Assembly: GCA_965262915.1 (NCBI GenBank)
Contig: OZ253564.1
Coordinates: forward strand, 1,152,001 to 1,216,000
DNA: 64,000 bases
DNA from: Candidatus Spongiisociaceae bacterium
Lineage (GTDB): Bacteria > Actinomycetota > Acidimicrobiia > Spongiisociales > Spongiisociaceae
Direction: 5' to 3'
Part shown: positions 5,888 through 59,574 of the stretch, piece by piece
Numbering within the stretch: position 1 is the first letter of the stretch
Layout: each line of letters opens with the position of its first letter
The notes under the pieces: generated by a model
Told to the model about the DNA's origin: nothing
The model's input: the letters and a program-made list of their open reading frames with translations, nothing else
Database searches by the model: none
Program-made: the position numbers and the translations under genes

Positions 5888-7128
5888 TCACTCCAGCCCG
5901 ATCGGGTAGGTGGAGAGAACCTCGCGACCGTTTTCGGTAACCAGCACCTGTTGTTCCAGCTTTACTCCCTGCCCCCAACCCCGACGTGCCACGAAGGACT
6001 CGACACAGATCACCATTCCGGGTTCCAGTGCACCGTCCTGCTCCGCCGTGTCCCATGTGTGGGGAAACCCGATCATCGGCCACTCGTCGGCCATACCCAC
6101 GCCGTGGTATTGAAGCGAGTAATGGTTGAACTGCTCGATGTCGGGGAGGAGTGAGTCGAAAGTCAGCTCCCGGAAGGTGACACCGGGCCGAACGATGTCG
6201 ACGTTGTGGTGTATCACCTCCTCGGCTCGATCGAAAATGTCCCGCTGGTTGGCGTCGGGGCGCCGAGTACCGGCGATCCATGTACGGGAGACGTCGATAC
6301 ACACGCCGAAGGCACCGATCAGGTCGGTATCGAAGGCCACCAGGTCGCCGTTTTCGATTACCCGAGCGGAGGCTTCCTGGTACCAAGGGTTCGTGCGGGG
6401 ACCGGAGCAGAGCAGGCGGGTCTCGATCCACTCGCCGCCTCGGACGATGTTCTCGGCGTGGAGGACCGCCCACAGATCCAATTCGGTCATGCCGGGTTCG
6501 AGGGCTGAGCGCATCGCGTCCAGCGCGTGTTCGGTCGCCACCATCACCGCCTTCATGAGCGCGATCTCCTCAGGGCTCTTGATGGAGCGCGATAGTTCCA
6601 TCACCTCGTCGCCGCTGCGCAACTGGAGTCCGTGGTTCCCGAGAGCATGGATGGCGTCGGGACTGGCGCGGTCGATCGCCACCCGCCTGTTGCCCCCTCC
6701 GTGTTCATCGACCAGACCGGCCAACTCGGCCGACCAGAGTGCCAGATTGGGATCCATCCGGGGGTTCCCGACGGCGCGTACATCCACAGCGTGGCGGGCC
6801 GCACCTCGTCGACCACGCTCGTATGTCCTGCCAGGAAGTCGGCCCTCTTATAGTCGAAGAGGATCGTCGGACCCTCGGCAGCCACCCAGAGATAGCGGTA
6901 AGGGTTATGCGAGGTCCACACAGACATGTTGGTGGTGTCAGACGCGTAGCGGATGTGAACCGGGTCGTACCCGATGACGCCGGCGTAGTCCAGGTGCTGG
7001 AGCCGGCTACGTACCCGGTTGAGGCGGTACCGGCGGACTGCGTCCAGATCGGGGAGGACGATCCCGGCCGCCTCGATCTCGGAGAGGGCCAAGCCGGGCA
7101 GCCCGATAGTGTGCCGGTTGTCGGCCAC
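5888..7128 (-). pseudogene. dddP: DddP-type DMSP lyase / M24 metallopeptidase, frameshifted near 6780
   Basis: N-part (IRYASDTTNMSVWTSHNPYR) in ORF 6601..7317 and C-part (LHAENIVRGGEWIETRLLCSGPRTNPWYQE, FDTDLIG, HGVGMADEWP, KLEQQVLVTENG) in ORF 5888..6787 match DddP motifs; one base missing at the junction. Confidence 0.85.
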
Positions 7129-7360
7129 GGCACGGTGATACTCATCGGATGTGCCAGAAGTAGGCCCGATGCGCCGGCGGACGCGTGACCCTACCGTGCC
7201 GTCTGACTGCACACTTTTCACTCTAGCCCCGATGGTCAGATACGCGATGGGATGTCGAGTGATCCACATGCGTAGATGGTTATTGCGTCCCCGTGCCCCT
7301 GCGGGTTCGGAGCCCATGGGTTATGATGTTTCTTTCCTCGGATCAGGAGTAGGAGGATCC

Positions 7361-8758
7361 ATGTCACGGAGAAACCCGGTAGTTCACCCGCGTGGGCAAA
7401 CGCGTCGGAGGTGGAGATTCTTCGCCTTGCTTGCTGCCCTGTCGCTGGTCGCCTTCGCATGCGGTGACGGCGGCGAGGACGACGCGGCGGCGGCCGAAGC
7501 GGCGGCTGCTCAGGCACAGGCTGCGGCCGCTCAGGCTGACGCGGCTGCGGCAGCGGCCGAGGACGACGCGGCTGCGGCCCAGGCGGAAGCCGATGCAGCT
7601 GCGGCGGCGCTGGCCCAGGCGGAAGCCGATCTGGAAGCCGCCCAGGCTTCGGCCTCCGACGCGATGGAGGGGGATGAGGCTTCCCAGGCGGCGCTGGCCG
7701 AAGCGGAGGCTGCCCTCGAAGAAGCCAAGCAGATGGCTTCCGACGCGATGGAGGGGGATGAGGCTTCCCAGGCGGCGCTGGCCGAAGCGGAGGCTGCCCT
7801 CGAAGAAGCCAAGCAGATGGCCGAGGAGGCAATGGCGGAGCCCGAGAGCAAGGGCACCATCGCGTTCAGCTACGGCGCAGAGCACTCCGGCATCTACCCC
7901 ATCGTTGCCGACCCAGCCAGGCTGGAGGCCGAGAGGCGTGGCTACGAGTGGCTCGAAGGCTCGGCGAACGGCGACTGTGACAAGCAGGTTCAGGACATGG
8001 AGGGCTTCGTGGCCGCCGGTGTCGACGCCATCGTGTTCCTGCCCTTGTGCGGTGTCGATCCGTATCTACCTACGGTGCAGGCAGCCAAGGATGCGGGCAT
8101 CGTGATCGTCGGTTACTCGACGGCAATCCCCGGTGGCGACTCGTCGATCGTCTACGCAAACATCGACGGAGCACGCGCTGTCGCCGCCGAAGCTCTTCGC
8201 TGGCTGGAGGAGGACTTCACCGGTGATCGGGAAACCTTCTCCTGGGCGCTCTTCACGTTCGACCAGTGTGGCATGGCATGTACCGACCGCACCGATCCCC
8301 TTCGCCAGATCATCACCGAAGCGACCGGCGTTGCACCCCTGGAGGCGGAGTCGGTTGCCGAGGCCAGCGGGCTGGAAGCGACGGAGACGTTCCTCCAGGC
8401 CGATCCGGGGCTCAACATGGTCATCGGAATCAACGACGCGGGAGCGCTCGGCGCCTACCAGGCGTTCGTCGTCCAGATCGAGTCGGACGGCAGGGATCCG
8501 GGCGAGATCTTCGTCGGGGGAATGGACGGGCAGAACGAGGCTCTGGAGTTGCTCGCCGGTGCCGACGAGTACGGCATCTACCGTGTGTCGGGTGCTCTGA
8601 TCCTTGACCAGTTGGGCAAGGCGGTCGCCGACCTGCCTGCCAACATCCTCGAGGGACAGCCGCCCACCAGCCTGGTGCTCAACTACGTGGCCGTAACTCC
8701 GGGTATGGCTGAGTTCGCGCAGCAGGTGCTTGACAACTACGAGGAATTCCTCGGCTAG
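7361..8758 (+). CDS. Sugar-type ABC transporter substrate-binding lipoprotein with long Ala/Glu-rich N-terminal stalk
   Basis: AGGAGG RBS, lipobox LVAFAC, periplasmic-binding-protein motifs (GVDAIVFLP, GINDAGALGA, GMDG). Confidence 0.88.
   Translation: MSRRNPVVHPRGQTRRRWRFFALLAALSLVAFACGDGGEDDAAAAEAAAAQAQAAAAQADAAAAAAEDDAAAAQAEADAAAAALAQAEADLEAAQASASDAMEGDEASQAALAEAEAALEEAKQMASDAMEGDEASQAALAEAEAALEEAKQMAEEAMAEPESKGTIAFSYGAEHSGIYPIVADPARLEAERRGYEWLEGSANGDCDKQVQDMEGFVAAGVDAIVFLPLCGVDPYLPTVQAAKDAGIVIVGYSTAIPGGDSSIVYANIDGARAVAAEALRWLEEDFTGDRETFSWALFTFDQCGMACTDRTDPLRQIITEATGVAPLEAESVAEASGLEATETFLQADPGLNMVIGINDAGALGAYQAFVVQIESDGRDPGEIFVGGMDGQNEALELLAGADEYGIYRVSGALILDQLGKAVADLPANILEGQPPTSLVLNYVAVTPGMAEFAQQVLDNYEEFLG
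7652..7819 (+). repeat. 84-bp in-frame tandem duplication (ASDAMEGDEASQAALAEAEAALEEAKQM x2)
   Basis: Two near-identical units starting at 7652 and 7736. Confidence 0.95.
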
Positions 8759-8865
8759 ATCGCGGGTTTCGTCAGATAGTGGGGCGGCCGGCACGTAGTC
8801 CCCGAGTGGCTACATGTCGGTCGCCTCGCGTATTGTCATGACCATCGGCGCCGGATTGAGGCCTC

Positions 8866-9918
8866 ATGCTCGGACGTGAACCTATGAGACTGCGATCGGG
8901 AGGCGCGTCCGCGCGAGGAGACAGTCAGAGAGAGATGGCCGGGACGTGGGCCAAGATCCTTCGAAACGGGATCGTCGGCGCGCTGGTTGTGGAGATCGTC
9001 TTCTTCGGCATATTCAGCGACCGGTTCCTCACGATATCGAACTTCAGATTGGTCCTGTTGCAGACCGCGGTCATCGCGACCCTCGCCATACCGAGCGCGC
9101 TTCTTCTGATGGCCGGGTACGTCGACTTCGCGATCGGCTCGATCACGGGCCTATGCGCGGTGCTCCTCGGAAGGCTCCTGGGATCCATGGAGGTGGTGCC
9201 AGCCCTGATGATCGTGGTGGTGATCGGCTTGGCGGTGGGTGCTGGGCAGGGGATTCTCTCCGCTCCGATAGGATTCTCCCCGATTGTGGTGACCCTGGGC
9301 TTCTTCACAGGTGTGCGGGGACTGGTATTCGTACTCAGCGACGGACGGACAACCTCGGGTTTCGGTGACACGTTCGCCATCATCGGCCGTGGTCGGGTCC
9401 GCTGGCTGGAGATACCTGTTCCCGTGGCGATTGCCGCGGTGACGGTCCTGCTGGGGGCGATCTTCCTCTACAAGACGAGATGGGGCCGCTATGTCGTAGC
9501 GATCGGCGTCAACGCGAGGGCAGCTTTCCGGGCGGGGATCCGGATCAAAGCGATACCCGTGTTCCTCTATATGGCGACCGGCGCGGGAAGCGCGGTCGGG
9601 GCGATGATCCTGGTGTCGAGGCTCGATGCGGCACCCCCACTCACGGGTGAAGGCCTGGAGCTGAACGTCCTGAGCGCGGTGCTCCTCGGGGGTGTGGCGT
9701 TCGGTGGTGGTCGTGGTTCTCTGATCGGTGTGATAGCCGGTGTGCTCTTCGTCGGGCTCCTGAACAACGGGCTTCTCCTGTTCGGCGTGGCCCCGTTCTG
9801 GTTCCGGGTGAGCGCCGGGGCGGCGCTCGTGGTGGCGGCGGGTCTCGATACGATCGGGCGCCGGCTCGAGGGGCGCACCACCGGCGGCCTCGGCGCACTA
9901 GGCCGCTCAGGAATCTAG
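8866..9918 (+). CDS. Sugar ABC transporter permease (RbsC/BPD_transp_2); start uncertain
   Basis: GYVDFAIGS, IVVTLG, TRWGRYVVAIGVN, ELNVLSAVLLGG..FGGGRGS. Confidence 0.9.
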   Translation: MLGREPMRLRSGGASARGDSQREMAGTWAKILRNGIVGALVVEIVFFGIFSDRFLTISNFRLVLLQTAVIATLAIPSALLLMAGYVDFAIGSITGLCAVLLGRLLGSMEVVPALMIVVVIGLAVGAGQGILSAPIGFSPIVVTLGFFTGVRGLVFVLSDGRTTSGFGDTFAIIGRGRVRWLEIPVPVAIAAVTVLLGAIFLYKTRWGRYVVAIGVNARAAFRAGIRIKAIPVFLYMATGAGSAVGAMILVSRLDAAPPLTGEGLELNVLSAVLLGGVAFGGGRGSLIGVIAGVLFVGLLNNGLLLFGVAPFWFRVSAGAALVVAAGLDTIGRRLEGRTTGGLGALGRSGI

Positions 9919-10404: not shown

Positions 10405-11202
10405 CTACCAGAAGGCGATCCCGCCGTTGAGATCGAATACCTGCCCGACCGATGAACCGGCGTCCGATGACGCGAGGAAGGCGACCATACCGGCCACCTC
10501 CTCCGGTGTCTGGTAGCGGCCGAGCGGGATGAGGTCACGGAACCGTTCCCGTACCGCTGTGAACGACTCGCCGCTCCGCTCGGAGATGTCGGCCTGAAGG
10601 GAACGGACCATCTCCGTGTCGACGATCCCCGGGAACACCGCGTTCATCAGGACGCCGTGGGGTGCGAGTTCCAGGGCCATCTGCTTGACCAGTCCCATCG
10701 CGGCGTGTTTGCTGGCCACGTAGGCCGCGGCAGGTGTGCTCCCCGACGACGGAAGGCGCCCGGCCGTGGAGACGATGGTGACTATCCGACCGCCCCGGCC
10801 CTGATCGATCATCCGGGATGCGGCGACCTGCGAGCAGAACAGGACCCCCTTGGCGTTGACGGACATGTGCCGGTCCCATTCCTTCTCCGTAACCTCGATC
10901 GCAGACGCCAGCGCCAGGACGCCGGCGTTGTTCACCATGATGTCGAGCCGTCCGAAGGCGCCGGTTGCCTGCTCGACGGCCGCCACGACCTGAGCTCTGT
11001 CCGAGACATCCACAACTGTCGGGATGGACCGTCCGCCCACGGACAGCACCTCTTCGGAAACCGAGCGGGCTGCTTCCCCATCGATGTCGGACGTGACAAC
11101 CGTCGCTCCCTCCCGCGCCAACCGCAGCGCGATCGCGCGGCCGATGCCACGCCCGGCTCCCGTGACGATCGCTACCTGGCCCTCGAGTTCATAGCGGGGC
11201 AC
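10405..11202 (-). CDS. SDR family oxidoreductase
   Basis: [23 protein letters not shown]. Confidence 0.93.
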
Positions 11203-11327
11203 GAGAACTCCTCTCCATCCGGAGTCCTATATGGCACATCGCCGGCGGGAGTAGCGGCGACCGCGGGTCAGGTGATTCGAACGTGGCGGCCTTGGGATAG
11301 GACGGCAGGGCAACCGGGCGGTCTCCT

Positions 11328-11612
11328 CTAGAGGTTCTCCAGGAACTCGACCTCTCGGTTCTCCAGGAGGGGCCGGAGCACTGCGATGGCCACTTCGGCG
11401 AAGTGGTCGGAGGCGATGTGGGCATCGATGGCAGCCCGGTCGTCGTACTGCTCCACGAGGATGAACAGGCGGCGATTGTCGATGCCCCGGTATACGTCGA
11501 AGGCGATGCATCCCGGTTCGGTGAGCACCATGGTTACGTAGCCGCGCAGGGCCTCCGCCAACTTCTCCTCGTTTCCGGGGGCCGCAACGTAGGTGGCCTG
11601 GATGATCATCAT
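11328..11612 (-). CDS. Antibiotic biosynthesis monooxygenase (ABM/YgiN-like) protein
   Basis: EPGCIAFDVYR, FILVEQY..AAIDAHIASDHF. Confidence 0.88.
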   Translation of the reverse strand: MMIIQATYVAAPGNEEKLAEALRGYVTMVLTEPGCIAFDVYRGIDNRRLFILVEQYDDRAAIDAHIASDHFAEVAIAVLRPLLENREVEFLENL

Positions 11613-11653
11613 ATCTTGTTCCTTTCGATCGCGTCTCTAGGGGGACCGCAGGG

Positions 11654-11980
11654 TCACATCGATGCAAACCCGATCGAGCGGAGTTGCTGCCGGCCTTCCT
11701 CGGAGACCTGATCGGGTGTCCAAGGTGGATCGAACACCCAACTGACCTCGAAGTCCTCGATCACACCCTGGCCGACCAACTCGTTGCGCATCTGGTCCTC
11801 GATGACCGACGTCAGCGGGCAGAAGGGGTTGGTGAGGGTCACGTCCAACGAAGCCTGCAGGCCGTCCACCTGCACCTCGCGCACGAAACCGAGGTCGACG
11901 ATGTTGACGCCGAGATCCGGATCGATGACCTTGCGGAGCGATTCGATGATCTGGCTCTCGATGCCGGTGGGAGCATCCAT
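11654..11980 (-). CDS. DUF59/SufT/PaaD-like metal-cluster assembly factor
   Basis: VIDPDLGVNIVDLG, LTNPFCPL, VFDPPWTP. Confidence 0.92.
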   Translation of the reverse strand: MDAPTGIESQIIESLRKVIDPDLGVNIVDLGFVREVQVDGLQASLDVTLTNPFCPLTSVIEDQMRNELVGQGVIEDFEVSWVFDPPWTPDQVSEEGRQQLRSIGFASM

Positions 11981-12429
11981 CAGGTCACCTTCCTTTCGTC
12001 GGTGTTGGGTCTGCTGTCGGAACCGTGGTCTTTCTCGGATCGATCTCCGGCTTCTTCGGTGGTCAGGTTCCGCCAGGTGACCACCCGGAGCCGTATCTCC
12101 ACGCGGGTGGTTCGGGTGGTGATCCAGTCGGCGATGCCATGGGCCATCCGGCGGAGGCGGGTAATCACGTCTCCGTCACCGACGGTCCAGGAGCCGACCA
12201 CCATCTCATCGCTCCGGATGCCGAACCGGGCCGCCTCGGCGACGCCCTGTTCGAGTACACGGGCCAGGGGCGCCGACACGGTTCCGGCTCGGAACTTGAG
12301 AGCCTGGTGAGCCTCGTCGGCGGGCATGCCTTCGAGCCGGGCAAGGATACGCCTGGCCTCGTCCTGTTCGATGCGAGCGTTGGTCTGGCAGGCCGTAACG
12401 CTCGGTTCCGGAAGCCGGGATTCGCTCAT
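11980..12429 (-). CDS. Divergent ribosomal protein uL22 paralogue
   Basis: Near-ungapped alignment by eye to uL22 over ~105 aa: AR..R.......G.....A...LKF, VLEQGVAEA, VGDG....RLRRMAHGIADWITTRTT (cf. VDEG....RIMPRAKGRADRILKRTS). Confidence 0.82.
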   Translation of the reverse strand: MSESRLPEPSVTACQTNARIEQDEARRILARLEGMPADEAHQALKFRAGTVSAPLARVLEQGVAEAARFGIRSDEMVVGSWTVGDGDVITRLRRMAHGIADWITTRTTRVEIRLRVVTWRNLTTEEAGDRSEKDHGSDSRPNTDERKVT

Positions 12430-13670
12430 CGCTTTCTCCTGGGCCTGCCGACCCGGCGCAGGTCGGTGGAGAGGTCTTCGATCTGGGCGGCGGTGACCGG
12501 CGTACCCGCTCTCATGAGCTTGCGGGTGGCGAAAATGTCGCGAGGCCTGCCGATGGTCAGCACGGCCTCGATCTTATTCGTATCGTCGTGGTCGCCGGAC
12601 AGTTGGAAGGCGGAGAAGGACCGCTCCCCGATGGACCCGCGGATCACATGCGGAGCGTCGGGATCGAAATGACCGAGAGACTGGATGGTCAGGTCGTACT
12701 GATCCGACCAGAACCAGTGGGGGGCACCGTCCACGGCGTCCTGGCCAACAATGTTGCGGGCCACCACAGCCCCCTGCCTCATGGCGTTGTCATGGTGCTC
12801 GACTCTCAGGTAGCCCCCACCGGACTGCTGCCCGGAGGCCACATCTCCGGCTGCATACACGTCGGGTACCGATGTCCGGCAGTGCCGATCCACCCGGATC
12901 CCCCCGTTCACCTCGATGGCGGTGCCGTGAGCTAGTTCGGTGTTGGGGATCATCCCCGCCGCCACCAGCATCCACTCGCACTCGAGTTCGCCTCGGTCCG
13001 TGGTGACGGCCAACCCGTCGGCGGTCTCCACCACGCTCGTTACCCGCTCTCCCAGGCGTAAGGTGCAGCCCGCGTCACGGTGGATTTCGGTCATGACCCG
13101 GCCGTACCGCTCCCCCAACGGAGCCTGCAGGCATTGCGTCTCCATCTCGATGATGGTGACCTCCGCCCCCAGACCGCGGGCAGTGGCGGCCACCTCGCAT
13201 CCGATGAACCCTCCTCCGAGCACCACCGCCTGGTTGCCGCCACGCAGCCTGCGGGCCAGATCCTCGGAATCGTCCCGGGTACGCAGGTGCAGGATCCGCT
13301 CGCCTTCGAAGCCGGGCAGCCTCCGGGCCCGGCCGCCGGTGGCGATGAGAAGATGGTCATAGTGGATGGTTCCGGCCTTGTCTGTCTCGACTGCCGAGCC
13401 ATCCACATCGATCGAGGTCGCGCGGGTACCGAGAACCAGTTCGACGGCGTTGTCCCGGTACCACTCCTCGGACCGGATGGTGGCGTCGCCTGATGCCATC
13501 GACCCGGCGAGTACCTCCTTCGACAGGGGAGGACGTTCGTAGGGCGGTACGTCTTCCTCGGATACCAGGACGACGCGGCCGTCGAAACCCAGATGTCTCA
13601 GGTTCGACGCGGCCGCGGCCGAGGCTGTACCGCCGCCCAGGAGCATGACGGTCTCGGAGAGACCCGCCAT
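12426..13670 (-). CDS. Glutathione-reductase-type NAD(P)H:ferredoxin reductase
   Basis: PYERPPLSK, LIATGG, GGGFIGCE, VYAAGD, WFWSDQYD. Confidence 0.93.
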   Translation of the reverse strand: MAGLSETVMLLGGGTASAAAASNLRHLGFDGRVVLVSEEDVPPYERPPLSKEVLAGSMASGDATIRSEEWYRDNAVELVLGTRATSIDVDGSAVETDKAGTIHYDHLLIATGGRARRLPGFEGERILHLRTRDDSEDLARRLRGGNQAVVLGGGFIGCEVAATARGLGAEVTIIEMETQCLQAPLGERYGRVMTEIHRDAGCTLRLGERVTSVVETADGLAVTTDRGELECEWMLVAAGMIPNTELAHGTAIEVNGGIRVDRHCRTSVPDVYAAGDVASGQQSGGGYLRVEHHDNAMRQGAVVARNIVGQDAVDGAPHWFWSDQYDLTIQSLGHFDPDAPHVIRGSIGERSFSAFQLSGDHDDTNKIEAVLTIGRPRDIFATRKLMRAGTPVTAAQIEDLSTDLRRVGRPRRKR

Positions 13671-13671
13671 G

Positions 13672-13992
13672 TCAGCCGGGCGGCGCTACACAGATGACGC
13701 CTCCCTCAACCTTGCAGGGAATGGAGAAGAGGGCCGAGTCCGCGGGGTTGATGCCTTTGCCGGTGACGGCGTTGAACTCCCACAGGTGGTTGACGCACGT
13801 CAGTACCTCGCCGTCCAGATCCCCGTCATGGAGAGGCCATGCCTGATGGGGACAGCGGTCCCGGTAGGCGCGTACCTCCCCGTCCACGTTGACGATGACG
13901 ACCTTCGTGCCGCCGGCATCGACCCCTTCGATGTCGCCTTCCCAGAGGTCATCGAGGTCCATTACCTCCAGCCACCGGGCTGCGTCGCTCAT
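13672..13992 (-). CDS. tmoC: Rieske [2Fe-2S] ferredoxin (TmoC-like)
   Basis: CPHQ...CVNHLWEFNAVTGKGINP. Confidence 0.92.
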   Translation of the reverse strand: MSDAARWLEVMDLDDLWEGDIEGVDAGGTKVVIVNVDGEVRAYRDRCPHQAWPLHDGDLDGEVLTCVNHLWEFNAVTGKGINPADSALFSIPCKVEGGVICVAPPG

Positions 13993-13995
13993 CCG

Positions 13996-14066
13996 AGTGG
14001 TCTGTCTGTGAAGGGCCGTCGCTGGCAAGCAGGCCGCAGCGAATCACTTTGCGGACAGACCACTAG
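13996..14066. mobile_element. Family B MITE (short form) between beta-subunit stop and ferredoxin start
   Basis: Inverted ends AGTGGTCTGTCTGTGAA / TTTGCGGACAGACCACT, CTAG on the right; similar to 45070-45141. Confidence 0.78.
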
Positions 14067-15091
14067 CCGACGGATTGGAGGGCGCCAAGCCCGGCATCGG
14101 CGAGAAGTTGCTCCCGTGCTGCCTTGGCCTCCCCAGCCACCGCTTCGGCACTGACATCTCCGGCCGGGGCCTGGGCGAGTATCCCACCCAGCGCCAGCGC
14201 AGCGGCGTCTGCGCGCGGTGCCCATTTCGCGATCCATCGCTCGAAGGCCGGGACGTTCTCCGGCCGCCCCTCTACCGCCAGGCTCCCCACGGCCGCCGAC
14301 CACCTGGCCCTCCGAGCCGAGTCCTCGTGCAGGTTCTGGCACAGCAGCCACGTGAGGTCGTCACCGTTGGCGCGGGCTGCCTCTCCCAACGCCCGGTTGA
14401 GGACGTCGTCGAGTGTCGGAGCTATCACCAGGTTGGCGGCGGTTATAGCCTCGCCCCAGTCGTAGGCGATCAGCGCCCGCTCGAGAAGTTCTCGTGTCGG
14501 TTGCCATCCCTCGTGGTTCTCCCAGACATCCCGCTCGCCAGTGGCGAAACCCGCGTCCGGGTAGCCCAACTGCAGCTCCCGCGTACGGATCGATACCACC
14601 GTCACCCGCCGGAGCTGGTCTGCCGCCGCCAAGGCTGCCGCATTGGTGATGTACGCCGTGGGCGACATGTGTGCCACGTAGGCCTGCAACATCTGAATGG
14701 CATGGGCCGGGTATCGGATCGGTGTGTAGAAAGTCCGGAGTATCTCCACCCATTCGGGGGAGAGGGACCGGTCGTGGCCTATGCTCGCATAGCTGTCCAG
14801 CAGACCGGCGACCTTCGTCTCCTGGGCCGCCTGCTTGGCCACATAGGCCCGGTACGTCAGCTGGTCCGGATCCCTGAACACTTCCCAGTCGTCGAGTTGG
14901 ATCGGCGAGTTGTCACGATAGGCCAGGAACCACAGGTTGCCCGGTGAGGAGGGGTTCTGCTCCAACGGCGCCAGCCGGCCCTTTCGCATCGTGTAGTTGG
15001 CGGCGTGGGTGCCGATCTCGTACTCGGTGGGCCTGCGGCGGATATCGCCGAACTCGCTCCAAGTGCGTAGCTTCCGCTTCTTGGCGCTCAT
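14063..15091 (-). CDS. tmoE: Soluble di-iron monooxygenase hydroxylase beta subunit (TmoE-like)
   Basis: RRRPTEYEI, FRDPDQLTYRAY, AYDWGEA, position in cluster. Confidence 0.93.
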   Translation of the reverse strand: MSAKKRKLRTWSEFGDIRRRPTEYEIGTHAANYTMRKGRLAPLEQNPSSPGNLWFLAYRDNSPIQLDDWEVFRDPDQLTYRAYVAKQAAQETKVAGLLDSYASIGHDRSLSPEWVEILRTFYTPIRYPAHAIQMLQAYVAHMSPTAYITNAAALAAADQLRRVTVVSIRTRELQLGYPDAGFATGERDVWENHEGWQPTRELLERALIAYDWGEAITAANLVIAPTLDDVLNRALGEAARANGDDLTWLLCQNLHEDSARRARWSAAVGSLAVEGRPENVPAFERWIAKWAPRADAAALALGGILAQAPAGDVSAEAVAGEAKAAREQLLADAGLGALQSVG

Positions 15092-15393
15092 GATGTCACC
15101 TCCTCCTCGGTCGCACCGCCCAGGGACCAGCTCGTCTGGTCGCTGCGGGAAGTGTTGATACGGCCGGCGTTGGCGGTCAACAGGGTCTCCAGCGACCGCA
15201 GTTGGTAGTCGGGTCCGAGATACCGCTTGAGCGAACTGGCCGTCAGCTTCAGGAACGAGGAGGCCTGGATGCGCACGTAGGCACCCCGATCGATCACCTC
15301 GATCTCGCGGCCCGGATTGTCGTCCTCGATGGCGCTGATGATCTCTTCGATCGTGTCGCTCATCCGCAGGATCGGTCCTACCGGATTCTCCAT
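15088..15393 (-). CDS. tmoD: Monooxygenase coupling/effector protein (TmoD, MmoB/DmpM family)
   Basis: VGPILR, EDDNPGREIEVIDRGAYVRI, AGRI. Confidence 0.93.
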   Translation of the reverse strand: MENPVGPILRMSDTIEEIISAIEDDNPGREIEVIDRGAYVRIQASSFLKLTASSLKRYLGPDYQLRSLETLLTANAGRINTSRSDQTSWSLGGATEEEVTS

Positions 15394-15403
15394 ACGGACC
15401 CTC

Positions 15404-15679
15404 CTACTCTTCCCAGTCCACACGGATGTGGTCGAGGGGGGCGATCCCCGCCTCGACCACCGTCACGTCGTCGGGCAGTATCCGGTTGTTGTGAATCACC
15501 AGCTTGGGCAAGCCGCGGTCCCGCACCCGGACTCCCACCGTATGGTGGGCGACCGCCTCTGCCACCTCCGCGATGGTGTTGTTGGACATCACCGGGACGA
15601 GAATCTCCACGAAGTCGTCGGCGAAGATGGCGTTCAGCGGGACGAGCTGGGGTTCGGCGGCGCCGCCGTTGTCGCTCAT
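15404..15679 (-). CDS. tmoB: Hydroxylase gamma subunit (TmoB-like)
   Basis: PLNAIFADDFV..LVPV....TIAEVAEAVAHHTVGVRV, TVVEAGIAPLD. Confidence 0.92.
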   Translation of the reverse strand: MSDNGGAAEPQLVPLNAIFADDFVEILVPVMSNNTIAEVAEAVAHHTVGVRVRDRGLPKLVIHNNRILPDDVTVVEAGIAPLDHIRVDWEE

Positions 15680-17184
15680 CCACCCACCCCCGCGCCAACG
15701 GGTTCGGTTCGCGCGTAGGCCTCGGTCCAGTCGTAGCCGCCGGCGTCGTCACCCATCACATCGGGGGTGAGACCCATGTAACCCAGGATGCCGGGGACGT
15801 CCATCGGCTGGATCTGGCCGGCGAGGAAGCGCTCCACCACCGTCTTGTTGTTGAGAGCGTCGCGATCCTCCCACCAGATCTGGCGGCAGGTCCTGGTGCA
15901 GAAGTGGTAGCGCACCCCGTTGTGCTTGAGCGAGTGGTTGCGGACCCGCCACTTGCCGTCCCGTCCGTAGGTGGCGTTACAGGTCGGAAGGTGGCAATAG
16001 TTGCACAGCCAAGGGAGAGTCTCAGGTAGGGCTCGGTGCATATTGCCGGCGTTGATGTTCTCCGCCAACACCTTCCACTTGTCACCGTAGAGGAGATCCC
16101 AGTTGGGGTACTTCTCGATGAGCCACTCGCGGGATTCGGGGCTGACCCCGACCGGCTTCCACCACAGGGTCGGGCGCCAGAACCACTCGCCCATCTGCAG
16201 CGAGTGATGCCATACGTCGAGACCCGCGATGAACTCGTCCCAGTACCAGGGGCGCTTCAGGCCGTAGTCCTGGATGGTGCGGACGAACTGATCGATGATC
16301 CACTCCTCCATGAACTCCCGGTAGCTCTGCTTGCGGTGCTCGACCGGCGTGTTGTAGTCCATCGACGGTCCGGTCAGGGCGGAGAAGGCCCGGGCCGAGA
16401 GCCAGAAGAACTTGTCCACTGTCCACTGGGCTCGTACCGGATCGTGCTCGACCAGGACCTCCAACGTGGGTCCGCCCTGCTGGGAGTGCCGGGCCTCGTC
16501 GGTCTGGATCGAGGAGATCAGGTTGGCGAATGCCACGTCGCCGGCTTCGAGGGCATCGGCGGCCAGGGCCACGAACTGGATGTTGGTGAAGCCCGTCTCG
16601 AACGCGAACGGGAGCTGGATGGCGATATCCACCACGCTGCCGCCGATCATCATGTTGTCGATCAGCGCCCGCAACGCGATGCTCACCCAGTCGTTGGTCA
16701 GCAATGCCCGGTGAGCCCAGTCGAACTGGGGATCGCGTTCCACCAGCTCGTGCGCGAACGTAAGGCTGAGCTGGCCGTGGCGGATCTCGTCGAGGGTGCC
16801 CATGACCGCCATGTTGCGCCAAGCGGGGCTCAGGCCGAAGCGGGCCATTCGGCTCTCCCCGTACACGGCGCCGTACTCGACTAGGGCGATCCCGCCGAGA
16901 TGCATCTTGACCGACGACCTCCACGCCTCGTCCAGCATGTCGTACTGGTTCGACCGGTGCAGGGCGGCCTTCACTGCGTAGGCGGCGGTCTCCTTCTCGT
17001 TCTGGGTGGCTACGTATTCAGGGTAGGCGACCTTGTAGCTCTCCTCCCAGGCCGACCAAGCCTCACGAGGAACCTTGCCCGATCCGCTCAACCAGTCAGG
17101 GAAGACGGCCTCGTCGTCCACGTAGCCCAGCGTCCAGTCGACATCCCGGACGATCCCTTGCCATTCCTCACGTTTGAGAGTCAT
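15676..17184 (-). CDS. tmoA: Soluble di-iron monooxygenase hydroxylase alpha subunit (TmoA/IsoA/XamoA group)
   Basis: Di-iron ligands VEYGA, DEIRH, FETGFTN, DEARH; WFWRPTLWW; C-terminal CNYC...HFCTRTC; RBS GAGGAAGGA before ATG 17184. Confidence 0.95.
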   Translation of the reverse strand: MTLKREEWQGIVRDVDWTLGYVDDEAVFPDWLSGSGKVPREAWSAWEESYKVAYPEYVATQNEKETAAYAVKAALHRSNQYDMLDEAWRSSVKMHLGGIALVEYGAVYGESRMARFGLSPAWRNMAVMGTLDEIRHGQLSLTFAHELVERDPQFDWAHRALLTNDWVSIALRALIDNMMIGGSVVDIAIQLPFAFETGFTNIQFVALAADALEAGDVAFANLISSIQTDEARHSQQGGPTLEVLVEHDPVRAQWTVDKFFWLSARAFSALTGPSMDYNTPVEHRKQSYREFMEEWIIDQFVRTIQDYGLKRPWYWDEFIAGLDVWHHSLQMGEWFWRPTLWWKPVGVSPESREWLIEKYPNWDLLYGDKWKVLAENINAGNMHRALPETLPWLCNYCHLPTCNATYGRDGKWRVRNHSLKHNGVRYHFCTRTCRQIWWEDRDALNNKTVVERFLAGQIQPMDVPGILGYMGLTPDVMGDDAGGYDWTEAYARTEPVGAGVGG

Positions 17185-17197
17185 GGTTGCTCCTTCC

Positions 17198-17662
17198 TCA
17201 GTCGACTTCCATGTGACCGAGTTGGCGGTAGATCGAGGCACTGTCCCAGTAGGCGGTCAGGCTCTCGATCCGGCCGTCGTCGTTTACATCGAATATGAAG
17301 GCGTGCGGTTCCCAGTACTTCATACCTTTGGGGGCGATCGGTCCCCACGCCTTCTCCTGGTGACCGCCGATGCTCACGACCGCCGCCACCTTTCCGTCCT
17401 CCGAGGCGGTGATCGAGTGGACCTCGTTGGACAGATCCGGGAAGGAGTTGATCAACCCTTCCCATATCGGCCGGGCCAACGTGGCGACCTTGCCGTCACC
17501 TCTGATGACCCGCTGCTTGGTCCAGATCTCGAACGGGACGTACGAGAAGTCGGCATTGTCGGTACAGAGGTCCACCATTGACAATGTGTCGTGCCGGCGG
17601 TAGGCCTCGAAGAAGGCTTCCACCGTTGCAACGGGGTCTGCCCTCGTAGCAGTTGTAGTCAC
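17198..17662 (-). CDS. NTF2/SnoaL-like protein
   Basis: VEAFFEAY..HD, SFPDL, DGRIESLTAYWD. Confidence 0.85.
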   Translation of the reverse strand: MTTTATRADPVATVEAFFEAYRRHDTLSMVDLCTDNADFSYVPFEIWTKQRVIRGDGKVATLARPIWEGLINSFPDLSNEVHSITASEDGKVAAVVSIGGHQEKAWGPIAPKGMKYWEPHAFIFDVNDDGRIESLTAYWDSASIYRQLGHMEVD

Positions 17663-17674
17663 GGATTCTCCTTC

Positions 17675-18094
17675 CTAGACGATCGACACCGCGTCGAGGC
17701 GTTTGACCGCCAGCCTGCGGTACAGGATGTTCTGATCCCAGAACCCCCGGATGGAAGTTATCCGGCCGTCGGAGACGCCCAGCATCCATACTTGGTCGAG
17801 GTCGATGTGTTTTTCCTGGTTGACGACGCCTAGATAGTCGGCGGCCTGGGTGCCCTCCATCTTCAATTCCGTGACCGCCGTACCGTCGGTTCCCATGAAG
17901 TGGTTCTTGGTGGTGAGAAGAAGATCCGGGAAGGCCGTGACCGTGGCCGCGAAGAAGCCTCTGGCCTCGTCCCTGCCACCCTTGACGTTGGCCGCCAGAA
18001 GATCGACGGTGGCGTCGGCCGAGACCAGATCCATCGCTCCGTCAACATCCCCTGCACTGATCGCGTCCCAGAAGGCGCCGGCTGTGTCGGACAT
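17675..18094 (-). CDS. SnoaL-like ester cyclase / NTF2 protein
   Basis: FWDAISAGDVD, TAFPDL, MEGTQ, DGRITSIRGFWDQ. Confidence 0.85.
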   Translation of the reverse strand: MSDTAGAFWDAISAGDVDGAMDLVSADATVDLLAANVKGGRDEARGFFAATVTAFPDLLLTTKNHFMGTDGTAVTELKMEGTQAADYLGVVNQEKHIDLDQVWMLGVSDGRITSIRGFWDQNILYRRLAVKRLDAVSIV

Positions 18095-18110
18095 CGGCAT
18101 CACCTCCCTG

Positions 18111-19130
18111 TCAGAGTATTGCGAGGCTCTTGAGCACCGCATCGGCCACCGCGTCGGCGGAGCCCGGGTTCTGGGCGGTGATCAGGTTACGGTCCACCAC
18201 GACATGGGACGACCAGGCGCTGCGCCCGTCGTCGAACACCGCCCCGGCGTTGCGGAGGGTGCTCTCTAGGTACCAGGAGAGACCATGCTGCCCGGGGCGG
18301 GTCTGGTCCTCTTCCTCGTCGGTGAACGACGTGACCCGGTAGCCGTCGAACAGCCACTGGCCGTCCAGGTTGGCGGGAGCCGACAGGAGGAAGGCGGGTC
18401 CGTGGCACACCGATGCGATGGCCGCCTGCTTCTCGTGGAGGATGCCGATCACCCTGGTCACGTCGGGGTTGTCGGACAAGTCCACCATGGGGCCATGGCC
18501 CCCGGGTACGAACACCGCGTCGAACTCCGCGATGTCCTCGTCGCTCAAGGTCGAAAGGTTGGCCGGGGAGACGAAGGCGGGTAGAGAATCGAGAGCGTCC
18601 TTGACCCGCTGCGATTCTGCGTCGCTGTCGGCGATCACCTCGGCGAGGGCGGATTCGAGGTCGGCCCGGGTGACGGACTCGGGTAGGTCCCGGGCTTCGA
18701 GTTCGTCCAGGAACTGGGTGTCGTTCCGCCATGAGGCGAAGGCAGCGCCGGATATGAGCTTGCGAGCCTCGACCGGGTGCATGCCGGTCCCCTTGAGCCG
18801 GTTGAACACCCGCAGCGCGGAGATCATGCCCAGTTCGGTCAGGTGGTGCAGGGTCAGGCGGATGTCGTCAACATCGTGCGCGAACGTCCGGGTGATGCTG
18901 TTGAGGAAGTCCTCGTCGTCATCCGGGTAGTGGAAGATCTCCTCGAGGCCGTAGGGGTCGGCGTAGGGGGAGCGGCCGTCGGGCGTGGTCACCACCACAT
19001 CAACACCCGCCTCGACAAAGCGTTCGTACGGCGTGAGCGCCTCGTCGGCGAAGTAGCCGGTCTCGTGCATGGAACCGTTGGCGAGCTGCATCTCCCGCGC
19101 GCTCGACACCAGGAACAACAATCGTGGCAT
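18111..19130 (-). CDS. DJ-1/PfpI (Hsp31-like) protein with internal insertion
   Basis: TGYFADE, FVPGGHGPMVDL, ASVCHGP, LITAQNPGS. Confidence 0.9.
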   Translation of the reverse strand: MPRLLFLVSSAREMQLANGSMHETGYFADEALTPYERFVEAGVDVVVTTPDGRSPYADPYGLEEIFHYPDDDEDFLNSITRTFAHDVDDIRLTLHHLTELGMISALRVFNRLKGTGMHPVEARKLISGAAFASWRNDTQFLDELEARDLPESVTRADLESALAEVIADSDAESQRVKDALDSLPAFVSPANLSTLSDEDIAEFDAVFVPGGHGPMVDLSDNPDVTRVIGILHEKQAAIASVCHGPAFLLSAPANLDGQWLFDGYRVTSFTDEEEDQTRPGQHGLSWYLESTLRNAGAVFDDGRSAWSSHVVVDRNLITAQNPGSADAVADAVLKSLAIL

Positions 19131-21363: not shown

Positions 21364-22275
21364 TCAGCGGCCGAAGCCATCCCAGGGGCCGATGGTGCGG
21401 GACCGGTTGGGGATGCCGGCGATCTCGGGCGCCTGCATGGGATCGTCCGGGTCGTAGTTCTCGGCGATCCCCTTCACGATGAAGTCCGGCTCGAGGGTGA
21501 CCCAGTTGATCAGGTCGCCGTCGAGGCGGAAGATCCAGGTGGTGCCTTCCTCGTTGTCGGCGAGGAACGAACCGTGCTTCACCCTCGCAGGACGCCAGAA
21601 GTAGGCGCCCGGTGAGATCGGTCCGTAGTTGTAGGTCATGCTGCCCGAGAGGCAGTAGGCCTCCTCGAACACCGGGTGGTGCATGAGCCTCTCGTCACCC
21701 CACCCTGCAGGAGCGTGACACACGAAGGTGCGGAAACCCTTGGTCTGGTGGTCGGGATCCCAGTCGAAGTAGAGGTCCTTCTTCTGCAGGAACTGCTGGG
21801 TGAGTCCCCGTTCCGGCTTGTTCTGGATGAAGTCCATCTTCTCGCTGTGCATGATCGTGAGCTCGCCGGGTTCCTCCGACACCGTGTTCCCGCCCTTGGG
21901 GATGAAGTCGCTCTCGTCCCGATCGGCGATCGAGAAGCCCCAGTCGCCGTATTCACGGAATATCAGAACCTCCGAGCCGGACTCGATTCGCATGTGCGGA
22001 ACTCTGAGACCGGCCGGGGCCCGCCAGTATCCGCCGGGTCCGAAGTCCTGGTCTCCGAGGTGGACCCGGCCGTTGAGCACGAACCATTCGGTGTCGGCGC
22101 TGTGGTACCCGCCCGGGCGGCCCCAGTCCGTCTCGAAGAAGACCTTGAAGGACCCGGCCCCGTTCTCCTCGTCGTACGAGAGGTTCTGCTGGCGGGCCCG
22201 ACCCTCACCGCGTGGTAGCTCGGGCGCATGCCATATGAGATCCTGCTCGTGTACCAGTTCGACGTGCGGTCGCAT
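21364..22275 (-). CDS. DUF4437-type double cupin protein
   Basis: MRPHVELVH, LSYDEENGA, HHPVFEEAYCLSG, YFWRPARVKHG; AAGGAG RBS. Confidence 0.78.
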   Translation of the reverse strand: MRPHVELVHEQDLIWHAPELPRGEGRARQQNLSYDEENGAGSFKVFFETDWGRPGGYHSADTEWFVLNGRVHLGDQDFGPGGYWRAPAGLRVPHMRIESGSEVLIFREYGDWGFSIADRDESDFIPKGGNTVSEEPGELTIMHSEKMDFIQNKPERGLTQQFLQKKDLYFDWDPDHQTKGFRTFVCHAPAGWGDERLMHHPVFEEAYCLSGSMTYNYGPISPGAYFWRPARVKHGSFLADNEEGTTWIFRLDGDLINWVTLEPDFIVKGIAENYDPDDPMQAPEIAGIPNRSRTIGPWDGFGR

Positions 22276-22393
22276 CCGGTCACTCCTTGTCGCACCTACA
22301 CGGGCGAGTTTCGAGTGCGGGGGGCCGGGTGTCAAGCCCGTTCGGACGGAGGGTCGGCTACGCTGCGCCGGCGTGACGGGAGAGGAGCGCGAC

Positions 22394-22735
22394 GTGGGGA
22401 TCACCGAACTTGCCGCGCAGATCGAGGGGTTTCTCGATTCGGTTCCCGAAGGGAGCGATGTCCGGGCGTTCCTCCGTGCGGTCGAGGGCGTGTCGGATGT
22501 GGCGGTCCCGGTTTACGACGGACCGATCGAGCTGCTGGTGGCGCCGTCGGCGATCATCGGGAACGACGGCTCGCCCATCGTCACCAAAGAGGCCACCCGC
22601 GGTCAGTTGATCGACGCCGCGGCGGGGTTCAGGACCAACGCGCAGAAGCTGATCGGGGAGGCGGGCCGGGCGATGGCGACCGCGATCACCCTCGAGCAGC
22701 TTGCCGACAGCCTCGCCCCCGGCAGGAGACGATAG
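22394..22735 (+). CDS. Hypothetical protein
   Basis: GAGGAG RBS before GTG, GC3-rich codons, no family recognised. Confidence 0.55.
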   Translation: MGITELAAQIEGFLDSVPEGSDVRAFLRAVEGVSDVAVPVYDGPIELLVAPSAIIGNDGSPIVTKEATRGQLIDAAAGFRTNAQKLIGEAGRAMATAITLEQLADSLAPGRRR

Positions 22736-22825
22736 GGCCGCCGCTACCAGGGCCCCGATCCCCCGATTCCCGCGCGACGAACCACACTCGCTGCGGGATA
22801 CCCGAACCGGTTGAGCCGGGTCGGG

Positions 22826-24358
22826 TCAGGTTCCGAGTACCCCCGGATTCATGATTCCGTTCGGATCGAGTTGCCGCTTCAGCGTCCGGACGTAGCCGGA
22901 GTAGCCCTCGGAGATGTGGCCTGCAAAGTCGTAGTAGCGACCGATCTGGAAGTTGACCGCGCCGTGGTCCTGGTAGATGGTGGCAACGTCGTTCCGGAAA
23001 TCGGAGGCCACGCGGCGGGCCCCGTCGAAGCGGCCCCTGCGGCGGGTCACGCCTTTCACGAGGGCCTTGACCGCCATGCCCGTTGGTACCTTCCCGAGCA
23101 TCTTCACGTTCCGGGGATTGAGGACGTACGCCCGACGGAGCGGATCCAGTTCGTCGGGCCACACGATGTTGGTCTCGACCAGTAGCTGTCCCTTGACCGC
23201 ACACATCAGGTGGTAGTAGTAGACGTGTTCCCGCTCGAAGGCGCCGGCATACTGCTCCGCCAGCTTGTCGACCTTCTCCATAAGGTCGAGGGTGGCCGAG
23301 AACGGAACGATCCCATGAACGGGCGCCCAGACCTCGCCGTTGGTCGATACCAGCGAAGCGGTGATACCGCCGACGAATCCCATGAACGGCTCGTCCCGCC
23401 ACTTCCCGGCGAGTTCACCGGCCAATTCCCGGCCTCCGTGGTCACCAACGATGGACCGGATGGCGCCTGCGTTGGCGGAAATCACCTCCGCGCTCAGACC
23501 CTCGGTCGAGGCGTGCAGCACCTCGGCCGCTCCGGCGAGAAAGCCGTACCCGGCTCTGATCAGGCTGTCTAGACGCTTGCTGGACAGGTAGAAGACCTCC
23601 GATGCCAGTCGTGACCGAGCTATGCCTGACATAGCGGTGAGGAGTTCCGAGAGGGAGGGGAAGTCGAAGCTCATGGACTCGTGTCCATGAGGCTGCTCCA
23701 TCAACTCGAAGCTGGCTTCTGTCTTGACTCCGAATGCCCCCGAGTCCCCCACGAACATCCCGGTCAGGTCCGGCCCGTAGTACCGGAAGTGGCGCCATCC
23801 GTCCACATGGGCGCCCGAGCCGGTCCTGATCACTTCCCCGCCGGGAGTGACCACCTCGAGGCCGAGAAGCGTGTCTCCCACCGTCCCGTACTTGCCGGAC
23901 CCGTACCAGACGGCGTTGTTCGATATGCATCCCCCGAGGGTCGATCCTTCACCCGACAGCGGCCCCCAGAAGACCATACGCAGGCCCCTCTCGGACAGGA
24001 CGGAGTGGAGATCCTTCCAGGTGCAGCCGGTCTGGGCGGTGATCGACATGGAGTCCACGTCGATCTCCTGTATGGCGTTCATGCGGGATGTGTCGAGGAG
24101 GATCCCGCCTGCCACGGTCGGCGTGTAGCCGAGCGTATACGAGAGGCCGCCGCCCCTCGGATAGATTGGGGTTCCGTGCTCGTTGGCGAGGCGGACGACG
24201 CCCGCCACCTCCCCGGTCGTGGCGGGCTGGACCACGAATTCGGCCGGCGCCACCTCCAGCCGGCTCAGGTCGGTGCCGTAGTACGCCAAGTCCCTCTTCG
24301 CGGTGGAGACGTGGGCGCCACCGACGACATCCCTGAGGTCTTGCTTCAACTGGTTCAC
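22826..24358 (-). CDS. FAD-binding oxidoreductase (GlcD/VAO-PCMH family)
   Basis: YPRGGGLSY, STLGG, GDSGAFGVKT, LDPNGIMNPG. Confidence 0.9.
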   Translation of the reverse strand: MNQLKQDLRDVVGGAHVSTAKRDLAYYGTDLSRLEVAPAEFVVQPATTGEVAGVVRLANEHGTPIYPRGGGLSYTLGYTPTVAGGILLDTSRMNAIQEIDVDSMSITAQTGCTWKDLHSVLSERGLRMVFWGPLSGEGSTLGGCISNNAVWYGSGKYGTVGDTLLGLEVVTPGGEVIRTGSGAHVDGWRHFRYYGPDLTGMFVGDSGAFGVKTEASFELMEQPHGHESMSFDFPSLSELLTAMSGIARSRLASEVFYLSSKRLDSLIRAGYGFLAGAAEVLHASTEGLSAEVISANAGAIRSIVGDHGGRELAGELAGKWRDEPFMGFVGGITASLVSTNGEVWAPVHGIVPFSATLDLMEKVDKLAEQYAGAFEREHVYYYHLMCAVKGQLLVETNIVWPDELDPLRRAYVLNPRNVKMLGKVPTGMAVKALVKGVTRRRGRFDGARRVASDFRNDVATIYQDHGAVNFQIGRYYDFAGHISEGYSGYVRTLKRQLDPNGIMNPGVLGT

Positions 24359-59227: not shown

Positions 59228-59349
59228 AACCCCCCTTTCAGGTACCGCCTGTCGGCTAGAGGGGAAGTGCCCGATCGGCATGCCGCCGTGACAACCGACC
59301 ATTATGGTACAAATCCGATGACTCTGAAGCCTTGGTGTATACTGAACCA

Positions 59350-59574
59350 ATGCGGCGTATACAGCTATACATGGACGATGACCTCGATGAAGCGCTATCC
59401 GGCGAGGCGGCTCGTCTGGGCGTCTCCCGTTCGGAGCTCGTGCGAGACGCAGTGAGGGTCTCGCTACGCGGCTTTCTCGACGCTGATCGCGATGCGGTCG
59501 ACGATCTGATCGGCTGGATCGACGTGGAGCCGGACGACGATATCGATTCGGTGGTCTACGGGCTCGAAGAGTGA
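59350..59574 (+). CDS. vapB: RHH/CopG antitoxin (VapB)
   Basis: MRRIQLYMD...GVSRSELVRDAV; TATACT 6 nt upstream (leaderless). Confidence 0.85.
   Translation: MRRIQLYMDDDLDEALSGEAARLGVSRSELVRDAVRVSLRGFLDADRDAVDDLIGWIDVEPDDDIDSVVYGLEE

Follow-up and report, generated by a model that had tools for sequence, protein, structure and literature searches.

The window analysed here is a stretch of 64,000 nucleotides from a Candidatus Spongiisociaceae bacterium, and the element under study is a soluble di-iron monooxygenase (SDIMO) gene cluster at positions 10405–19130. The cluster consists of 13 intact, co-oriented open reading frames (ORFs) on the minus strand, free of internal stops, whose order runs from a DJ-1 protein through two NTF2 proteins, the alpha, gamma, coupling and beta components, a Rieske ferredoxin, a reductase, a uL22 paralogue, a DUF59 protein and an ABM protein to a short-chain dehydrogenase/reductase (SDR). 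This arrangement, with overlaps or short gaps and no frameshifts, had been described in an initial annotation made from the sequence alone and was reproduced in full. The intergenic distances from DJ-1 to SDR are 16, 12, 13, -4, 10, -4, 70, 1, -4, -1, 41 and 125 nt. Thus, gaps within the cassette range from -4 to 70 nt, with 41 nt preceding ABM and 125 nt preceding SDR. The family labels of all 13 ORFs were confirmed by Pfam and NCBIfam scans, and likely starts were assigned from the sequence and homologues at 18094 (NTFa), 17184 (alpha), 15393 (coupling protein) and 13992 (Rieske ferredoxin).

The first gene (18111..19130, -; DJ-1/PfpI) encodes an Hsp31-type protein with Glu30, Cys242-His243 and an inserted helical domain of ~100 residues. 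It is followed by two NTF2 proteins of the SnoaL/ester-cyclase type, NTFa (17675..18094, -; SnoaL) and its distant paralogue NTFb (17198..17662, -; SnoaL). The monooxygenase genes comprise a group 1 SDIMO hydroxylase alpha subunit with six iron ligands (15676..17184, -; Phenol_Hydrox), a gamma subunit of the TmoB family (15404..15679, -; TmoB), the coupling or effector protein (15088..15393, -; MmoB_DmpM), the beta subunit (14063..15091, -; Phenol_Hydrox), a Rieske ferredoxin that follows beta rather than gamma (13672..13992, -; Rieske) and an HcaD/AndAa-like ferredoxin reductase of the glutathione-reductase (GR) type (12426..13670, -; Pyr_redox_2 and Reductase_C). The distal genes specify the uL22 paralogue (11980..12429, -; Ribosomal_L22), a SufT/PaaD-like DUF59 domain for metal or Fe-S maturation (11654..11980, -; FeS_assembly_P), a small protein of the ABM family that is an optional member (11328..11612, -; ABM) and a classical SDR that adjoins the conserved cassette from outside (10405..11202, -; adh_short).

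The alpha subunit retains the iron ligands E103, E133, H136, E196, E230 and H233 with both DExRH motifs, keeps the Thr-Asn pair, and aligns end to end with toluene/o-xylene monooxygenase (ToMO) and toluene 4-monooxygenase (T4MO), the closest solved structures (E 4e-165). A TmoB-type gamma subunit, a coupling protein and a Rieske ferredoxin complete the group 1 component set, and identities of 41–51% to other group 1 alpha subunits exceed the >35% group threshold (Yang, Kertesz and Coleman, 2025; PMC11825192). Judged by sequence, the cluster belongs to the group 1 SDIMOs and encodes a complete four-component di-iron monooxygenase, comprising a GR-type reductase predicted to use NADH, a Rieske ferredoxin, an alpha-beta-gamma hydroxylase and a coupling protein, yet it lacks the canonical gene order and reductase type of the group.

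To place the alpha subunit, 64 sequences, among which TmoA, TouA and IsoA themselves did not figure, were used in a quick maximum-likelihood tree. The window alpha fell within a clade of 47 rows (Shimodaira–Hasegawa-like approximate likelihood ratio test, SH-aLRT, 99) that excludes XamoA, IbcA, ThmA of Xanthobacter YN2 and the Tmo-type plasmid enzymes; the group 1 node likewise had an SH-aLRT of 99. Alpha identity between the clade and characterised enzymes is ~50% or less. The proposal in the initial annotation that the system is atypical and uncharacterised therefore stands, as the alpha subunit did not nest with a characterised enzyme and is placed by this tree outside any characterised clade among the enzymes sampled. 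In 45 of the 47 clade rows, Ser, Thr, Asp, Asn or Ala stands in place of Gln141 of ToMO. XamoA and IbcA carry Asp there, and the 13 other group 1 rows all retain Gln. Deep members of the clade have Asp at position 140, and the window alpha has Val at position 102 as do XamoA and IbcA. Four C-terminal cysteines were considered as a clade marker and discarded, being present also in ThmA, WAY2, TomA3 and EtnC. The closest alpha relatives (89–95% identity) include Ca. Spongiisociaceae and other metagenome-assembled genomes of Acidimicrobiia, an alpha match was found in 9 of 28 genomes of the host family, and the genome of the window has a single SDIMO by the queries used.

The canonical alpha-gamma-ferredoxin-coupling-beta-reductase order, which is stated for toluene monooxygenase operons in the published classification (PMC11825192), was present in 12 reference loci compared. 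The order here is instead alpha-gamma-coupling-beta-Rieske-reductase, and the Rieske gene lay downstream of beta in all 65 loci with enough flank. The reductase is of the GR type rather than the 2Fe-2S/ferredoxin-NADP reductase (FNR) type of TmoF. A GR-type reductase was rejected as a marker of the clade: 48 of 65 loci have the reductase and 17 do not, and two canonical-order clusters possess a GR-type enzyme too. Component fusions were observed among relatives. Gamma is fused to alpha in proteins of ~600 residues (L060:8992-10809; P0047, P0052, P0070 and others), and P0060 unites alpha and coupling-protein domains. In loci L024 and L071 of Acidimicrobiia, alpha is followed directly by beta, no gamma or coupling gene was detected, and Gln is kept at position 140.

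Conservation of the gene set was surveyed in 79 loci, 77 of them in the clade, that were derived from the best 80 of 231 confirmed matches by score. Counts per gene refer to loci with enough flank, and ORF families were clustered after codon-model gene calling, which missed genes in the low-GC loci L058 and L060. DJ-1 was found in 67 of 68 loci, NTFa in 70 of 71, NTFb in 72 of 72, the uL22-like gene in 58 of 64 and DUF59 in 57 of 64. The accessory genes are thus linked to the hydroxylase as the initial annotation had proposed, although its view of the whole set as one unit holds for the core genes, only partly for ABM (27 of 62 loci by tblastn; the ABM family cluster in 35 of 79) and not for SDR (2 of 60). 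Eleven of the 13 genes constitute the conserved cassette, to which ABM is an optional addition and of which SDR is not a member. The gene order is far beyond chance, as it recurs in ~70 other loci, and DJ-1, both SnoaL proteins and the Rieske-after-beta order mark the clade across five phyla. Carriers include soil actinobacteria, Dormibacterota, Chloroflexota, a Bradyrhizobium, a myxobacterium and sponge-associated Acidimicrobiia. In a reverse test with 251 Pseudonocardiaceae genomes, NTFb was directly upstream of 15 of 15 clade alphas and 0 of 7 other group 1 alphas, the one remaining NTFb being at a contig end, and all 17 metagenome loci found with a uL22-like profile hold other cassette genes. 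As the system is uncharacterised and its accessory genes are tightly linked to the hydroxylase, neither of the objections that the initial annotation had foreseen, namely a characterised clade with the same gene set or accessory genes that are not conserved, applies. Two cassette copies occur in some Pseudonocardiaceae genomes (L009 and L013; G186; G256), and in a sponge relative the reductase end and the uL22-like gene are partly duplicated in tandem (L002:12458-15374; L108:5507-8408).

The flanks beyond the cassette vary freely between loci. No conserved transporter or ring-cleavage gene was found among the 138 flanking ORFs scanned (of 188 selected), nor was any ring-cleavage dioxygenase, glutathione S-transferase or coenzyme M gene recognised in this set, in agreement with the initial annotation, to which such genes were not visible. 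Sporadic occurrences comprised two mycothiol S-transferase-like genes, small VOC-family genes in three loci and a lyase in three loci whose matches include a coenzyme M pathway model below cut-off. In four RNA runs from one sponge metatranscriptome study, a comparison at the level of words showed 0.18–0.21 of the sampled words to be present.

The DJ-1 protein has the Glu and Cys-His residues of Hsp31, the roles of which have been described (PMC5297802): among 49 sequences, C242 and H243 are invariant and E30 is present in at least 90%. The score against the curated HchA model is 93 bits, below the cut-off of 365. The insertion matches ADSL_C, the C-terminus of adenylosuccinate lyase, in all 49 members at E≤5, with a best value of 2.7e-8 whereas that of the window protein is only 0.085. 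An adenylosuccinate-lyase-family enzyme adjoins the cassette in three related loci (L012:15645-17030, L013:2825-4348 and L014:3228-4655), which is worthy of note because the DJ-1 insertion resembles the C-terminal domain of that family. A second, plain Hsp31-like DJ-1 protein is encoded beside the cassette in 29 loci.

NTFa and NTFb each possess their own set of invariant residues. SnoaL models match all 52 NTFa and all 55 NTFb sequences, and the nearest folds to NTFb are SnoaL2, AclR, IdmH and KstA15 from polyketide pathways, at 15–20% identity. The initial annotation had likened the NTF2 proteins to limonene epoxide hydrolases (LEHs). This assignment was abandoned for both proteins: the LEH family model PF07858 matched 14 of 52 NTFa sequences weakly (best E 7.6e-4) and none of the 55 NTFb sequences. 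Furthermore, the Asp-Arg-Asp triad that we take to be the LEH signature is absent from the NTF2 proteins.

The uL22 paralogue exceeds the PF00237 cut-off with 59 bits and falls below that of TIGR01044. It retains the full-length hairpin, in which basic residues are replaced by His, Trp and Thr, and has invariant His97 and Trp102. The net charge is +1 (family median +3) compared with +12 for the protein from the genome's own, separate and normal rplV. On the strength of these properties and of fusions to DUF59, the paralogue was rejected as the L22 protein of the genome. Among 58 genes matched by uL22, 36 also were matched by DUF59, of which 35 are fusions of ~250 residues; the fusion was checked by Pfam for one and is annotated as a single gene on a Rhodococcus plasmid. 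The six loci without the uL22-like gene are all non-actinobacterial, and a divergent actinobacterial locus (alpha 56% identical) also has none. The uL22 paralogue and DUF59 are an actinobacterial add-on that is often fused. A fold model of the uL22-like protein with alpha and beta scored 0.59 against 0.00 for the best of three controls, including one in which alpha was replaced, with contacts that agree at least 90% between runs and a partner pLDDT (predicted local distance difference test) of at least 81. Of 157 solved complexes, 116 pass the mark applied, as do 2 of 215 mismatches, and the passing scores of ≤0.60 include only 18 of the solved complexes and both mismatches. The model, which is graded as weak on this scale, hints that the uL22 paralogue may bind the hydroxylase. 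Together with DUF59 it might dock on the enzyme and assist in its assembly or in the loading of metal.

A regulator related to YqhC of E. coli (26–36% identity, E≤1e-5) is encoded in 54 of the 79 loci. The yqhD promoter, which is controlled by YqhC, is activated by glyoxal and furfural (PMC5297802). The 79 loci also include 16 aldehyde dehydrogenases, of which 11 have succinate-semialdehyde dehydrogenase as the top model; the background across six whole genomes is 12 of 160 at ≥450 bits, two of the 12 being cassette-linked. The 11 GabD-like proteins form ~7 groups with 47–67% mutual identity at differing positions, and the groups are as distant from one another as from the GabD-like gene of genome G000 itself. 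This divergence suggests that GabD-type dehydrogenases were recruited to the cassette repeatedly. The genome of the window has one GabD-like gene, located elsewhere. A non-GabD aldehyde dehydrogenase family with betaine-aldehyde-dehydrogenase-like top models and no close solved relative was found at L008, L018, L078, L113-L115, L117, L119, L120 and L123 (best matches 70–98% identical). The regulator and the aldehyde dehydrogenase neighbours lend further support to the role in aldehyde and electrophile handling that had been assigned to the cluster. The initial suggestion of alkene or heterocycle epoxidation with cofactor-free epoxide opening and aldehyde detoxification is partly supported, in its latter part but not with regard to LEH-like NTF2 proteins. 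The frequent uL22-DUF59 fusions, the ADSL_C-like domain inserted in DJ-1 and the connection with succinate-semialdehyde dehydrogenase had escaped the initial annotation.

The reading that we tentatively favour, at clearly less than an even chance, is that the genes form a self-contained unit for the catabolism or detoxification of a five-membered heteroarene that is small and membrane-permeant, with furan or methylfuran as the first candidates and pyrrole or thiophene as possible others. Indirect indications from the gene content point this way: the YqhC-like regulator, the Hsp31-type Cys-His residues, the recurrent GabD-type neighbours and the lack of a conserved transporter or ring-cleavage gene in the scanned flanks. 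Oxidation of furan yields butenedial. In the proposed route, the hydroxylase would epoxidise the ring, and both SnoaL proteins, perhaps working together, would guide the arene oxide towards either cis-butenedial or a butenolide. The DJ-1 protein then would add water via a cysteine thioester, either in a vinylogous glyoxalase III reaction or by lactone hydrolysis, to give succinic semialdehyde, which a nearby or housekeeping GabD-type dehydrogenase could convert to succinate. The YqhC-like activator may sense the substrate or the dialdehyde. As furan, one oxygen atom and water sum to succinic semialdehyde, no further redox enzyme would be needed, which matches the gene set: this mass balance suits a cassette that combines an oxygenase with three cofactor-free enzymes and a recurrent GabD-type neighbour and that has no conserved dehydrogenase or transporter. 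Pyrrole and thiophene would follow the same balance with loss of ammonia or sulfide. The downstream logic has precedents in the degradation of tetrahydrofuran to succinate (PMC7758286) and in Dxm/Thm-type SDIMO clusters with a semialdehyde dehydrogenase upstream (bioRxiv 10.1101/2025.03.20.644286).

Several observations weigh against a furan-type substrate. The vinylogous glyoxalase reaction is conjectural for a DJ-1 protein, and no precedent for it was found. The YqhC-like gene is not near the cassette in the sponge relatives of the window, and G000 gave no YqhC match. All 11 GabD-like matches are below the curated cut-off, a full-length aldehyde dehydrogenase of that cluster is absent from 63 of 79 loci and from the window, and the non-GabD family occurs in three genome loci and in all seven metagenome loci that show an aldehyde dehydrogenase, so that GabD-type proteins account for 11 of 23 overall. 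A serine hydroxymethyltransferase gene follows the cassette in four related loci and on the Rhodococcus plasmid, for which furan chemistry offers no explanation. Aromatic hydrocarbons are considered plausible substrates for subgroups A and B (PMC11825192). The loci moreover do not represent independent samples.

The alternative that survives best, although it is unlikely, is epoxidation of short or halogenated alkenes, in which the SnoaL pair opens the epoxide and DJ-1 acts as a glyoxalase III that converts glycolaldehyde, glyoxal or methylglyoxal to glycolate or lactate. The pocket residues shared with XamoA and IbcA, including the Asp 140 of deep clade members, would suit such a substrate, as would the plain second DJ-1 protein, the YqhC-like regulator and, through assimilation of C2 units via glycine, the serine hydroxymethyltransferase. 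However, no diol or alcohol dehydrogenase is conserved, unlike in the isobutylene cluster (PMC13188929), the NTF2 proteins are outside the LEH family, and the GabD-type neighbours would be left unexplained. Ranking after this as an improbable explanation, the enzyme would be an arene hydroxylase of the T4MO or ToMO kind whose ring-cleavage partners are encoded elsewhere in the genome, and the helpers would serve to quench arene oxides or the dialdehydes from ring opening and to repair damage. T4MO and ToMO are the closest solved structures, relatives are annotated as toluene monooxygenases, and aromatic substrates are regarded as plausible in the review (PMC11825192), but the clade is separate at ~50% identity or less, Gln141 is replaced in almost all rows, the scanned flanks hold no ring-cleavage gene, and the helper genes are not part of canonical clusters.

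Oxidation of a partly saturated C4 heterocycle, such as 2,3- or 2,5-dihydrofuran, tetrahydrofuran, pyrroline or pyrrolidine, also would end in succinic semialdehyde and would be consistent both with the GabD-type neighbours and with the second aldehyde dehydrogenase family. Moreover, cyclic ethers are attacked by a group 1 enzyme from Xanthobacter YN2 (PMC11825192). Nevertheless, ThmA of that strain lies in another clade, and the additional dehydrogenation steps would call for an alcohol dehydrogenase, none of which is conserved; this explanation is distinctly doubtful. The initial annotation had offered small-molecule biosynthesis as its second option, and a tailoring module in which SnoaL2/AclR-like proteins resolve an epoxide or peroxide intermediate would accord with the nearest folds of NTFb. 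The low identity to these folds and a regulator of the electrophile-stress type speak against it, and as no polyketide synthase, non-ribosomal peptide synthetase, exporter or other tailoring gene recurs, biosynthesis is not supported and is considered very improbable. Oxidation of volatile organosulfur compounds such as dimethyl sulfide, suggested by a DddP-like dimethylsulfoniopropionate (DMSP) lyase gene ~3 kb beyond SDR and by the cassette in Pseudonocardia sulfidoxydans, is the least credible of all, for that gene is in two frames and has no counterpart among the neighbours that recur or were scanned at related loci, and S-oxidation needs neither DJ-1 nor SnoaL proteins.

Other features of the window and of related loci were recorded. 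The DddP-like gene (5888-7317, -) matches NF043017 below cut-off in each of its N- and C-terminal parts, and a link with the cassette was rejected on the grounds of its split frames and absence from the recurrent and scanned neighbours. The region 7151-9918 (+) encodes a sugar-type ABC binding protein, whose N-terminal region is repeated and rich in Ala and Glu, and then a permease; in L001 and L004, too, genes for an ABC permease and a binding protein are present beyond ABM. Upstream of the cassette are genes for an FAD-linked oxidase and a DUF4437 double-cupin protein (21364-24358, -). An IS630-family transposase (35156-36250, +) and a group comprising a BrxD-like ATPase, a DEXH helicase and a large unannotated ORF (55680-59683, -), possibly a BREX-related defence module, are situated further away. 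A divergent group 1 SDIMO on a plasmid of Mycobacterium sp. THAF192 (L100:3834-13440) adjoins genes for a RutB-like amidohydrolase, a nucleobase-type permease, a GR-type reductase, an acetylene-hydratase-like enzyme, an ABM protein and allophanate hydrolase, and probably represents another unstudied N-heterocycle pathway.

Most of the diversity of group 1 SDIMOs has no known substrate, and subgroups A and B are described as lacking experimental data, with no substrate given (PMC11825192). Table S3 of that study includes Bradyrhizobium ivorense CI-1B, Streptomyces sp. San01 and Pseudonocardia sulfidoxydans NBRC 16205, the genomes of which correspond to loci L060, L063 and L016, respectively, matched by strain only and with the subgroup letter deduced. 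As these three organisms carry the clade, the lineage very probably has been placed already in a published tree, as an uncharacterised one. The term 'SnoaL' does not appear in the main text of the study, and no description of the cassette was found in the literature searched, subscription papers being outside that search. The same holds for a uL22 paralogue tied to an oxygenase and fused with DUF59, and for a DJ-1 protein with an ADSL_C-like insert, both of which matter whatever the substrate. A furan-type reading, if true, would be important because degradation pathways for furan are listed as unknown in a 2026 review (PMC13039779). In its full form it would describe a widespread pathway for unsubstituted or alkyl-furans, or for pyrrole or thiophene, in which a toxic enedial is converted to succinic semialdehyde by the SnoaL pair and a DJ-1 protein with a new lid, and uL22-DUF59 has been co-opted for assembly or metal loading of the hydroxylase; taken whole, this account is rather unlikely. 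Given its broad host range, the cassette could provide a biological sink for some common volatile compound. It is compact and present in cultured, non-pathogenic strains, Rhodococcus jostii NBRC 16295, Pseudonocardia benzenivorans and Gordonia hydrophobica being cultured carriers, and both the proposed substrate and the proposed route are directly testable.

Among known systems, TouABCDEF (ToMO) and TmoABCDEF (T4MO) of group 1 subgroup C resemble the cassette in the four-component design, gamma subunit and Rieske ferredoxin, and their alpha subunits share the iron ligands and Thr/Asn pair. The cassette differs from both in gene order, in a reductase that is GR-type or missing, in replacement of Gln141, in its separate clade, in the obligate DJ-1 and two SnoaL genes, and in uL22-DUF59. 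XamoABCDEF of Xanthobacter Py2 and IbcABCDEF of Mycolicibacterium ELW1, also in group 1, have Val 102 and a residue other than Gln at 140 as does the cassette, but show 47% alpha identity, canonical order and an FNR-type reductase. Unlike the cassette, Ibc uses an epoxide hydrolase and dehydrogenases (PMC13188929). The phenylacetyl-CoA epoxidase PaaABCDE is also a multicomponent di-iron enzyme that epoxidises a ring, and its operon encodes the DUF59 protein PaaD, whose models the cassette DUF59 matches below cut-off. Its hydroxylase is of a different family and acts on a CoA-bound substrate, and the system is not known to have a Rieske protein or uL22-like partner. Finally, the cassette DJ-1 protein shares the Glu and Cys-His residues and the fold of HchA/Glx3 (Hsp31, glyoxalase III), and is distinguished from these by its ADSL_C-like insertion of ~100 residues.

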